From a virus (Duplodnaviria; Heunggongvirae; Uroviricota; Caudoviricetes): DNA of 24,071 bases. The stretch lies in the IMG/VR virus record IMGVR_UViG_2737471839_000014. The stretch is one strand, 5' to 3'. The position numbers were made by a program, and so were the translations under genes. Below are positions 16,570 through 24,071 of this stretch, in pieces. The first letter of the stretch is position 1, and each line of letters starts with the position of its first letter. The notes beneath the pieces are model-generated. The model saw only the letters and a list, made by a program, of their open reading frames with translations. It made no database searches and was not told the DNA's origin.

Positions 16570-16775
16570 TTCATTTTCACTTTCTTAAATCTAACGACAG
16601 ATGGCTAACATTTAAGTATTGTGAAATATTATCAAATGTAATCATCATTGATTTACAAAAGATACATTTTGCCCCGAAAGGATTTCTGTCAGAAACATCA
16701 AAAGATGATGTTCTATACTGAGAACCATGGCAACACGGGCATCTAAAGTGAATATGGTTTGTAATATTTTCTACC

Positions 16776-16988
16776 TCAAAGTGCCACTACATGAACAGCT
16801 GCAGGGCCTTTAGGTCCGTTCTCAATACCAAATTCGACTTCCTGATTCTCAGTTAACGTTTTGAAATCGTTGCTCTGAATAGCTGAGAAATGCACAAACA
16901 CATCTTTGCTACCATCTTTCGGCGTGATGAAACCAAAACCTTTTTCAGGGTTAAACCATTTCACTAAACCAGTCATTTTGTTAGACAT
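16776..16988 (-). CDS. cspI: cold-shock protein, CspA family (CspI-like)
   Basis: 70 aa [38 protein letters not shown]... with canonical cold-shock domain motifs (RNP1-like KGFGFI, VFVHF); ATGATG start at 16991/16988; long AT-rich 5' leader typical of csp genes. Confidence 0.85.
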
Positions 16989-17351
16989 CATTATTACCTT
17001 TTGAAGAAGTTAGCCCTTGGGCAGAATGGTCCGAAAAAAAATATCAGAGAGAAAAACCAACAAGGAAATCTCAAGAGGTACAAATAATAAAATTATAACA
17101 ATGACTGCTTCAGATAATTTTGTAACAAACCAGAACACCATTAACGCATGATTAACCAACCATAGCAAGGATTACTTTTGTAAAGAAAAACACACGAATG
17201 AAACAATAGCTTTATTTATTAATAAAACGTGTCATTCTGTCTAATGACCTTTTATCTTACCCTTAAGATTTCAAGGATTTTGACTCATGGAAGAGTCCTT
17301 TTTATTTAAATTTCACATTCAGCGCTAAAAATAATCCGATTTAATATTAAT

Positions 17352-20132: not shown

Positions 20133-20831
20133 TTTTCCTCACATATGTCATATAGTAAAGGATTATATATACCGTTGTTTTGGACGCTCAAACAGCGAAT
20201 CAGATCAAATAAAACGCACATTTGTTAACATTTACACAAAGTCTGCGTGGGATATTCTGAAAGAATATCCATAATGTGGAGAGAATCTATTGAAGTGCAT
20301 GGTGCCGGGTGCCTCCCGGTGAATTCAGTACCAGCACCTGAATCCACGATTATCCCATATACCTACTCGCTGATTGCCCCTCCGCATAGGGGGATTCACC
20401 ATGCCAGTTTCTTTTAACAAACTCCCCGCAAACCAGACAACAGTCAACCGCCTGAATTGTGAAGTATTTAAAAATTTCTCCCGCTAACTGATACCCGGCT
20501 AACAGTCTGGCGTTTTCTTTTTCAGCAACGGGAAAGCAACAACCACCACACCCGCCACCAGCACACCGTCAGCCAGCACTGACATTATCCGGCTGCTGCA
20601 ATGCCATTCACAAAAACAGTAAGCAATCACTTTTTACCGTAACAGGTGATAATCCAGATATGTATCTACCCCAGATGAGTAATCCGAAGTTCATCCATAC
20701 CACAGGTCCTGGCTATTCTGTTGTACTCCTGAACAAGAGCAAATAATTCTGAATTAGCAACCATGAACTCATCGCAAACCCTCTGTATAGCATCACTATT
20801 CAGAATAATAACGTCTCTTCCCGAAAGACGA

Positions 20832-22059: not shown

Positions 22060-22215
22060 TTACTCCTCAGGTTCGTAAGCTGTGAAGACAGCGACCTCCG
22101 TCTGGCCGGTTCGGATTCGTACCTCGCAGAGGTCTTTCCTCGTTACCAGTGCCGTCACTATGACGGTTAAACAGATGACGATCAGGGCGATTAACATCGC
22201 CTTTTGCTGCTTCAT
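22060..22215 (-). CDS. hokD: Hok/Gef family type I toxin (HokD/RelF-like)
   Basis: 51 aa MKQQKAMLIALIVICLTVIVTALVTRKDLCEVRIRTGQTEVAVFTAYEPEE, matches recalled HokD; ATG at 22215 with AAGGAG SD; track ORF 22060..22272 is an in-frame upstream extension. Confidence 0.9.
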   Translation of the reverse strand: MKQQKAMLIALIVICLTVIVTALVTRKDLCEVRIRTGQTEVAVFTAYEPEE

Positions 22216-22472
22216 AGCCTGCTTCTCCTTGCCTTTCGGCACGTAAGAGGCTAACCTACATGTGTCTAGCATGAAATTGGCCTCAGATTAATGTTAAGCG
22301 TCTTGCAGGACGCGTAATGTTAACTGGGGCTTTTCTCTACCTGCCGTTGGTGTTCGTGCCCGAGGCAGATAGCCTCAAGCACCCGCAGTCATTCTACTTA
22401 ACTAAGATTTCCCCGCAAACCGTTTTGTCCAGCACAGTAAATATCCAACTAAACCAATGGAGTTCGCTGTAT

Positions 22473-22652: not shown

Positions 22653-23134
22653 TATTCCCCCTACAATCAATGTGCAATAACATTTAAACACACCTCAATT
22701 TAGCCGGACATATAAATATCTAAACCAGAAAAAATCACTTACATAGCGTTACAAACTCTTTAGTCTAAATATTCATCGTAAAACATTCCCCATACTTATC
22801 AGCCCGTTCTGCGCCAGGTAGCTCATTGCCTTATCTGGGAACCTGTAATCAGGTTTCCGGATGCTGGTGGATTTTCGCGTTTTAGTTGTTCATAAAAGTG
22901 CACAGCTTTAACCAGTTCTTCTGATGTAACCGGGACTGGCGGGGCAGTGAATAAGGCCTGAATTTCATAGTTCGGCCTATCGTTACAATCCTCTTTTTTC
23001 GGTACATATTTCCAGTCACCAGACCACTACTTCCCCTGAAAGTCCGTAACGCCTTTTTTTCACGTAGCGATATCGCCATGCCACTGTTTTTGCTTGCCCC
23101 GCCGTTTCATGCCCTTCCTGATAATTAACCTCGC

Positions 23135-23311
23135 TCATTCATCGCCCCACTCATCACAATATGCTTCGACCGGAGTTTTTCCTGCTTCATAATCATCACG
23201 CCATGCTTCAGCATCAGCAGCACTGCCACCACGTAACTCTGCATAGTCCATTAACAGTTCATGCCATTCTTCAAAACCGACGTTGTATTTAGTTGAACCA
23301 AAATCAGCCAT
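23135..23311 (-). CDS. small acidic protein, unknown function (below ORF-track cutoff)
   Basis: 58 aa MADFGSTKYNVGFEEWHELLMDYAELRGGSAADAEAWRDDYEAGKTPVEAYCDEWGDE; ATG at 23311 preceded by GAGGAAG; translated by hand from the sequence. Confidence 0.35.
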   Translation of the reverse strand: MADFGSTKYNVGFEEWHELLMDYAELRGGSAADAEAWRDDYEAGKTPVEAYCDEWGDE

Positions 23312-23348
23312 TTTGTTCTTCCTCTTCGTCTTTTATTTCGTGATATGA

Positions 23349-23486
23349 TTAATTGCAGTAGTTAAAGAAAATATCTTTTGCTTCGTCATGTATTTCATCA
23401 GGCGTCGCATCATTATCCACTTCGAATTCATCCTCGAAATCTCCACCGGCTATTCCCGTTTCAATAATTATTTTAAACTTTCGCAT
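23349..23486 (-). CDS. small acidic protein, unknown function (below ORF-track cutoff)
   Basis: 45 aa MRKFKIIIETGIAGGDFEDEFEVDNDATPDEIHDEAKDIFFNYCN; ATG at 23486 preceded by AGGAGG and a GC hairpin; translated by hand. Confidence 0.3.
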   Translation of the reverse strand: MRKFKIIIETGIAGGDFEDEFEVDNDATPDEIHDEAKDIFFNYCN

Positions 23487-23891
23487 TTAACTACCGCCCT
23501 TTCGGGCGGCCTCCTGATGTTCTGAGGGTGCAGAAATCCCTCCGGTTAAGGATTAAATTTTTAACAGTGCTAAATTTAATTATTCAGTTCTGGATTTTGT
23601 CACCCTGCGTATCCGCGCTTTCCCGTTACGCTCAATCTGAATTAGCTTTTCTATATTTTTTCGCCTTTCCCGTTCCTCCTGGCGCAAGAGCCTTACATCA
23701 TCTGCCAGTCTGGTTTCTCTTTTCGCCACAGAGAGCATCCAGTCAAATGGCTCCACAACTGCACCTCAGATTTTACAGCGGACCTGACGCTCTTTTTCGT
23801 CAACCCGGACAGAAGCGTGATGGCAATATGGTCTTTCCGATGGCTCATAAAGAAAATTAACCTGATTACGAGGGTCATCCTCTTTTATCGG

Positions 23892-24071
23892 TGAACCGCC
23901 CCGGGTTTCCTGGAGAGTGTTTTATCTGTGAACTCAGGCTGCCAGATCATTGTTTCCGATGGAAGCATAATAAGCTTTTTCTGCTTCTGCCGGAGGAGTA
24001 TGGCCCAGCCTTCCCAGCAATCGTCGATTGTTATACCAGTCCACCCACGTGAGTGTGGCCAGTTCCACTTC
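23892..24071. mobile_element. end of an IS3-family insertion sequence (IS629/IS1203-like), truncated by window edge
   Basis: terminal sequence TGAACCGCCCCGGGTTTCCTGGAGAGTG starting at 23892 matches recalled IS629-type inverted repeat; followed by transposase 3' end on minus strand. Confidence 0.65.
23934..24071 (-). CDS. IS3-family transposase OrfB, C-terminal fragment (5' end outside window)
   Basis: minus-strand translation ...EVELATLTWVDWYNNRRLLGRLGHTPPAEAEKAYYASIGNNDLAA stop; resembles C-termini of IS3-family transposases. Confidence 0.7.
   Translation of the reverse strand, partial: EVELATLTWVDWYNNRRLLGRLGHTPPAEAEKAYYASIGNNDLAA

Follow-up and report, generated by a model that had tools for sequence, protein, structure and literature searches.

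A probable IS629-type insertion in an already decayed early-region gene of a Qin-like prophage

At the right-hand end of the 24,071-nt stretch of phage DNA analysed here (referred to as the window), an insertion sequence abuts an open frame on the minus strand that has no start codon, which raises the question of what the insertion did to the gene at this site and to the prophage that carries it. An earlier note, made from the sequence alone, took the frame for a gene whose 5' portion had been separated by the insertion and took the site for a degraded end of the prophage. The explanation that we consider best overall, and very probably the correct one, is that an IS629-type element inserted into an early-region gene of a Qin-like prophage and that this gene had already decayed. 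The features on which this explanation draws are collected in Table 1.

Table 1. Features at the right-hand end of the window (positions are those of the window; an empty strand cell means that no strand applies).
Feature	Coordinates	Strand	Basis or remark
IS3-family insertion sequence of IS629 type, its right-hand 180 nt (corresponding to element positions 1131-1310)	23892..24071	-	180/180 to M16807; 178/180 to IS629; 177/180 to IS1203v; window edge cuts the element
25-bp terminal inverted repeat, right end (IRR), TGAACCGCCCCGGGTTTCCTGGAGA	23892..23916		CP-1639 annotates the same 25 nt as IS629 repeat
C-terminal 45 codons (23937-24071) of IS transposase OrfB and TGA stop (23934-23936), …ELATLTWVDWYNNRRLLGRLGHTPPAEAEKAYYASIGNNDLAA*	23934..24071	-	ORF list; NF033516; orfB position in annotated IS629
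Copy predicted for a 3-bp target duplication, CGG on plus strand, CCG = Pro16 on minus strand; TCGG if 4 bp	23889..23891		Inference
Open frame described in the earlier note, codons 16-56 (41 sense codons) of the phrog_1621 gene	23769..23891	-	Translation and alignment
TGA nonsense codon within the gene, in place of TGC (Cys57) in the C-K-I-C motif	23766..23768	-	TGC in both phages, TGA in window and 1EC213; allele table
Remnant of the 118-aa phage gene, codons 16-118 and natural TAA (23580-23582), without codons 1-15	23580..23891	-	Alignment to ArgO145, vB_EcoS-813R8 and 1EC213; PHROG
Residual 58-aa ORF with GTG start, codons 61-118 of the dead gene	23580..23756	-	ORF list; called separately by gene finders

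Alignment to 1310-bp reference elements placed the final base of the insertion sequence at window position 23892, and the similarity to IS-free E. coli stops exactly at the adjoining base; in a megablast search of 23300-24071 against 5,426 complete E. coli genomes, query positions 1-592, which correspond to window 23300-23891, matched IS-free genomes at 99.8-100%. By megablast, 23892-24071 match 'IS3 family transposase' annotations in 6,257 records, the best of them at 100%. All 180 bases are shared with the copy in E. coli M16807 and with many other E. coli records (180/180 in each case), 178 of the 180 (98.9%) with the IS629 annotated in phage CP-1639, and 177 of the 180 with IS1203v, the latter two comparisons covering the visible 180 nt only. 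The IRR is identical to that of the annotated IS629 in CP-1639 and pairs, with 92% complementarity, with the left arm (IRL) TGAACCGCCCCGGGAATCCTGGAGA of a full-length copy that has an identical end. This full-length copy, in M16807, measures 1309 bp in its frameshifted state, is bounded by 25-nt terminal inverted repeats, and is annotated by PGAP as a single frameshifted IS3-family transposase; other copies with an identical end are approximately 1310 bp long, with orfA and orfB joined in a programmed -1 frameshift layout, and the annotation of an intact FDAARGOS_1285 copy gives a programmed frameshift. The OrfB end matched the NCBIfam model NF033516 (transpos_IS3) at positions 339-369 of 369 (E 2.6e-4), scoring, as a 45-residue fragment, 20 bits against a whole-protein cut-off of 160. 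As judged from these alignments, an IS629-type element of the IS3 family has its right end (IRR) at position 23892, in the same (minus) orientation as the neighbouring phage genes, and the earlier note was correct in placing the start of an IS629-like terminal repeat there.

With regard to the family of the element, the 180 nt align end to end with positions 1131-1310 of the 1310-bp element of the group comprising IS629 and its isoforms IS1203, IS1203v and IS3411 (Shigella sonnei; E. coli O157:H7, O111 and O26); the 25-bp terminal repeat starts TGAACCGCCCCGGG in both IS629 and the window, and the OrfB C-terminus is the same, and the window holds only 14% of the element. The full copy in M16807 is approximately 96% identical to phage-borne or O157 copies annotated as IS629 or IS1203v, which is inside the reported 4-5% spread between IS629 subtypes. 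The isoform-level nucleotide identity threshold for IS629 follows ISfinder practice, and transposition in the IS3 family proceeds by a copy-out-paste-in route. A lambdoid prophage, where the window's element sits, is the typical location of IS629, 62% of the IS629 copies in four O157:H7 genomes being found in prophages or prophage-like elements, and the target duplication of IS629 has been reported as 3-4 bp (PMC3271280). E. coli genomes carry a median of three IS629-type copies, with up to 50 places per genome. No second IS629-type sequence or IRL was found within the window, 23892-24071 being its sole IS629-type stretch. A consensus scan of 23300-24071 found no promoter, including none directed outward at the IS end; two terminator-like matches in the same interval, both on the plus strand opposite the genes and one of them inside the IS repeat, were regarded as chance.

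The minus-strand frame that meets the element belongs to a phage gene assigned to phrog_1621, a family with no annotated function in PHROG. Intact homologues of 118 aa, MEIKPEDELSNIVLFPVKEDDPRNQVNFLYEPSERPYCHHASVRVDEKERQVRCKICGAVVEPFDWMLSVAKRE…SRTE, are found in phages ArgO145 (YP_009907882.1) and vB_EcoS-813R8 (URE76706.1), and the intact homologue matched the phrog_1621 profile with an E value of 1.8e-56 over residues 1-117. Intact phage homologues were found by tblastn against phage genomes; with a 107-aa query (positions 12-118, built on the copy in 1EC213, an IS-free relative, after restoring Cys at codon 57), 11 phage records matched over the full length at 95-97% amino-acid identity. 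Nucleotide alignment placed the IS between TTT (Phe15) and CCG (Pro16) of the 118-aa gene that is intact in both phages, so that the insertion did cut off the 5' part of the gene, as had been proposed. The phrog_1621 family comprises 118-aa hypothetical proteins of lambdoid and Stx phages; the frame of the window copy is interrupted, with no start codon, with codons 1-15 missing, and with TGA as codon 57; on this reading of the frame the window copy is a phrog_1621 pseudogene rather than a functional member. In vB_EcoS-813R8 the intact gene has the same neighbours as the window copy, being located downstream of a 140-aa gene at the DUF977 position (annotated LygF there) and upstream of the small genes that lead to hok. 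The sole domain hint in the 118-aa protein was a sub-threshold match to Pfam Zn_Ribbon_TF (21.6 bits versus a cut-off of 29) over C38-H-H…C54-K-I-C57; no NCBIfam family was found for the protein, and a search for sequence relatives in the PDB returned nothing significant (E 0.55). The protein may consist of a CxH…CxxC zinc-ribbon-like core followed by a charged helical tail.

Minus-strand translation of 23763-23891 gives PIKEDDPRNQVNFLYEPSERPYCHHASVRVDEKERQVRCKI*G, the same peptide as quoted in the earlier note, and the absence of a start codon was likewise confirmed, as the in-frame sequence upstream of 23891 is IS DNA (…VHR*NTLQETRGGS, running into PIKE…) with no ATG, GTG or TTG. The extent of the frame needed correction, in that it comprises 41 sense codons rather than 42 and its stop occupies 23766-23768 rather than 23763; 23763-23765 is the next codon (Gly) of the same frame, after the TGA. 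Nor is this stop the end of the gene, for which it had been taken; it is an internal nonsense mutation, TGC(Cys57) to TGA, beyond which the homologous frame remains open for 61 more codons to the TAA at 23580-23582. The residual 58-aa ORF is a called gene in 409 blocks of a public assembly index, and a lookup in this index returned ten places, all of them without the IS of the window. The change from TGC to TGA also turns GCGGT into GAGGT, a Shine-Dalgarno-like sequence 6 nt before the in-frame GTG at 23754-23756 (minus strand, 23754-23771). A 110-aa ORF on the plus strand (23528-23860), antisense to the pseudogene and annotated in no record, was regarded as spurious.

Codons 8 and 57 were typed in every locus retrieved. 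The two phages, ArgO145 and vB_EcoS-813R8, have GAG at codon 8, TGC at codon 57, and no IS; PEC1011, a close relative and the top-ranked full-window match among complete genomes, has TAG, TGC, and no IS; eleven IS-free loci from isolates and metagenomes (L001, which is 1EC213, and L009-L018) have TAG and TGA; and in the window, where the IS is present, codon 57 is TGA and codon 8 lies beyond the IS. Nucleotide alignment of the IS-free 1EC213 copy gave both substitutions, GAG(Glu8) to TAG and TGC(Cys57) to TGA, and PGAP annotates this copy as a pseudogene with an internal stop; every IS-free copy with TGA at codon 57 (TGA57) also carries TAG at codon 8 (TAG8). The simplest history would thus begin with the change of GAG to TAG at codon 8, followed by that of TGC to TGA at codon 57, with an IS629-type element transposing between codons 15 and 16 as the last lesion, one that is seen only in the window; that TAG8 was present in the window's own ancestor is something that we infer from its relatives. 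Because IS-free relatives already carry both TGA57 and TAG8, the IS almost certainly met a gene that was already dead, and by the nested order of the lesions the 41-codon frame would be the middle part of a triply damaged pseudogene, with no product expected from it. IS-free E. coli carry, on the upstream side of the pseudogene and immediately past the IS site, a gene annotated for a 40-aa hypothetical protein, WP_001345625.1 (L001 4576-4698; L006 13069-13191); its last 15 codons arise from the same G-to-T change as TAG8, the intact phage sequence GAT GAG reading as a TGA stop in that frame.

Other readings of the TGA and of the residual ORF have to be set against this history. Under the reading that comes closest to the earlier note, the gene still worked until the IS inactivated it, and its 3' part is preserved intact as the 41-codon frame that ends near 23763; the start codon and 15 codons are indeed lost to the IS, but the stop is a TGC-to-TGA change in a conserved Cys with the homologous frame continuing to 23580, both TGA57 and TAG8 occur in 11 IS-free loci, and PGAP calls an IS-free copy a pseudogene, all of which makes this course of events most unlikely. 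Recoding of the TGA, as selenocysteine or by read-through, would leave 23580-23891 as one coding unit, and the wide distribution of the TGA57 allele would be consistent with it; in selenoproteins the classical pattern is that some homologues have a Cys codon where others have TGA. However, a fold of the 72 nt that begin at the TGA is less stable than those of shuffled controls (MFE -14.4 kcal/mol, z = +1.14) and shows no hairpin where a SECIS would lie, and the TGA and TGC alleles are one base apart in near-identical DNA (99.8% over 592 nt), which points to a recent point mutation. TAG8 is moreover linked to every IS-free TGA allele, and a start codon is entirely missing from the window copy; recoding was rejected on the missing SECIS hairpin and the allele pattern, and we regard its probability as close to negligible. 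It could also be proposed, from the GAGGT motif ahead of the GTG, that the TAG8/TGA57 allele expresses a new protein of 58 aa, which retains the charged helical tail but not the zinc ribbon, and hence represents domain-shedding under selection rather than decay; in the window, transcription of this ORF could come from read-through of the IS transposase gene, which has the same orientation. Given TAG at codon 8, the GTG at 23754-23756 would be the first conventional start in either codon-57 allele, so that gene-finder calls are no proof of expression, and we consider a new protein of this kind very unlikely.

Returning to the insertion into an already decayed gene, the surrounding gene order indicates where in the prophage it took place. 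Along the plus strand the window carries tail, head, and terminase genes, cold-shock and lysis genes, an antiterminator gene, rusA, a DUF968 gene, rem, and hokD/sok, followed by a frameshifted small gene, a 58-aa gene, a DUF7167 gene, the phrog_1621 pseudogene, and the IS; this order identifies the window as a lambdoid prophage of the Qin-like type from E. coli or Shigella, running from the tail genes to the early region. In IS-free relatives the genes past the insertion site are a DUF977 gene, a 321-aa gene, a ydaT-like gene, dicC/dicA, ydfA-C, dicB, ydfD, an exonuclease gene, xis, and int adjoining rspB, and in PEC1011 the prophage extends approximately 8.7 kb beyond the site to int. The proposal that the site marks a degraded end of the prophage was therefore not borne out, as the prophage of IS-free relatives continues for about 8.7 kb past the site to int next to rspB, and the insertion site lies inside the early region. 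Qin (Kim) of K-12 and Qin-like prophages at rspB/ynfA share DUF968 (ydfU), rem, hokD/sok, dicA/dicC, ydfA-C and dicB, with int adjoining rspB in the relatives; unlike the cryptic K-12 prophage, the version in the window retains full head, tail, and terminase modules. The interval between hokD and dicC, which in the window's version has DUF7167, phrog_1621, and DUF977 genes, is presumably occupied in K-12 Qin by relBE-flxA.

Several other features of this prophage were recorded. An apparently intact type I toxin-antitoxin locus, hokD/sok (22060-22384), is located 1.5 kb from the IS; it consists of a 70-aa hokD toxin ORF containing the Hok peptide (22060-22272, minus strand) and a sok antisense RNA (22210-22384; Rfam RF01794, 107.8 bits). 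Rfam matches were also obtained for the STnc100 sRNA (20243-20433, 111.5 bits) and for a cspA-type thermoregulator leader (16730-17146, 110.1 bits), the latter presumably that of a cspI/cspB-like prophage cold-shock gene. In FDAARGOS_1285 the antiterminator gene is preceded upstream by genes for tRNA-Arg and tRNA-Ile, and an Rfam search of the window found no tRNA. A second decayed small gene is located at approximately 22773-23138 on the minus strand; its equivalent in 1EC213 and PEC1011 is annotated as 'frameshifted; internal stop', and at this position a 119-aa gene without interruption is present on the metagenome contig L015.

Searches for the junction itself returned no second occurrence. 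In the megablast search of 5,426 complete E. coli genomes no record spanned 23891/23892 and none covered 80% or more of the query, while exact junction patterns, as well as the predicted far junction with a spacer of 0-8 nt, were absent from the genome, viral, and metagenome contig collections. The IS junction thus appears strain-specific. FDAARGOS_1285, which appeared to cover the whole window, has its IS629-type copies at other sites, one within the DUF968 gene and others close to the terminase genes. The Qin-like early region has been struck independently by other insertion sequences; in FDAARGOS_1285 the DUF968 gene carries an IS629-type copy (L005 30691-31904), positions 1-55 of the metagenome contig L013 are a different IS end, which we take to be IS3 proper, in the DUF977 region approximately 350 bp further upstream, and three strains have an IS1A inside the stretch that matches window 23300-23891.

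A simple insertion with a 3-4 bp target duplication makes specific predictions for the DNA beyond the window. Approximately 1130 further bases of the IS would follow, ending …TCTCCAGGATTCCCGGGGCGGTTCA on the plus strand, and directly after the IRL end would stand CGG (or TCGG) and then AAATAAAACGATATTGC. The sequence predicted after the duplication, AAATAAAACGATATTGCTTAACTAATCCTCTGG…, would carry TAG8 (CTA on the plus strand), with the DUF977 gene beyond it; the plus-strand continuation past the IS, …(C)CGGAAATAAAACGATATTGC…, would comprise the rest of the interrupted gene and the DUF977 gene, and the rest of the prophage would then be expected to follow. Alternatively, the IS end could be the product of an IS-mediated deletion or inversion, or of recombination between two IS629 copies, in which case unrelated DNA would follow and the prophage would be truly truncated. 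The window reaches only 180 nt into the IS, the part from DUF977 to dicB is found nowhere else in the window, the numerous IS629-type copies per genome are substrates for recombination, and deletions mediated by IS elements are cited as a source of O157 diversity (PMC3271280). No positive evidence for such a rearrangement was found, however; the break coincides exactly with the terminus of the IS, which is also what a plain insertion would produce, and simple insertions are a commoner outcome than IS-mediated rearrangements, so that a truncation of this kind is unlikely, if by no means negligible. The junction could also be an assembly artefact, the end of a contig having been wrongly joined to a repeat. 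The start of the window adjoins that of tail gene J, which is repeated, and its last 180 nt belong to a multicopy IS, a layout often seen in whole short-read contigs; the odd length of 24,071 nt suggests one whole contig of a short-read assembly, bounded by repeats, in which case that assembly would offer no sequence beyond the window. The junction is unique among all collections searched. The join, by contrast, falls at the exact last base of the IS terminal repeat, which is typical of real insertions and rare for misjoins within repeats, and an artefact is accordingly most improbable.

With simple insertion into a decayed gene as the preferred reading, the event is of a known kind and involves a known element, and it is a case of ordinary prophage decay. 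For annotation, this means that the 41-codon frame should not be entered as a gene and that 23580-23891 should be entered as a single pseudogene, marked as having an internal stop and as interrupted by an IS; similarly, the prophage boundary should not be set at the IS junction. The junction could act as a strain or lineage marker, in the same way as IS629 sites are used in the typing of O157:H7 (PMC3271280). Finally, the series that would lead from TAG8 through TGA57 to the IS provides a tidy small example of the stepwise decay of a prophage gene.
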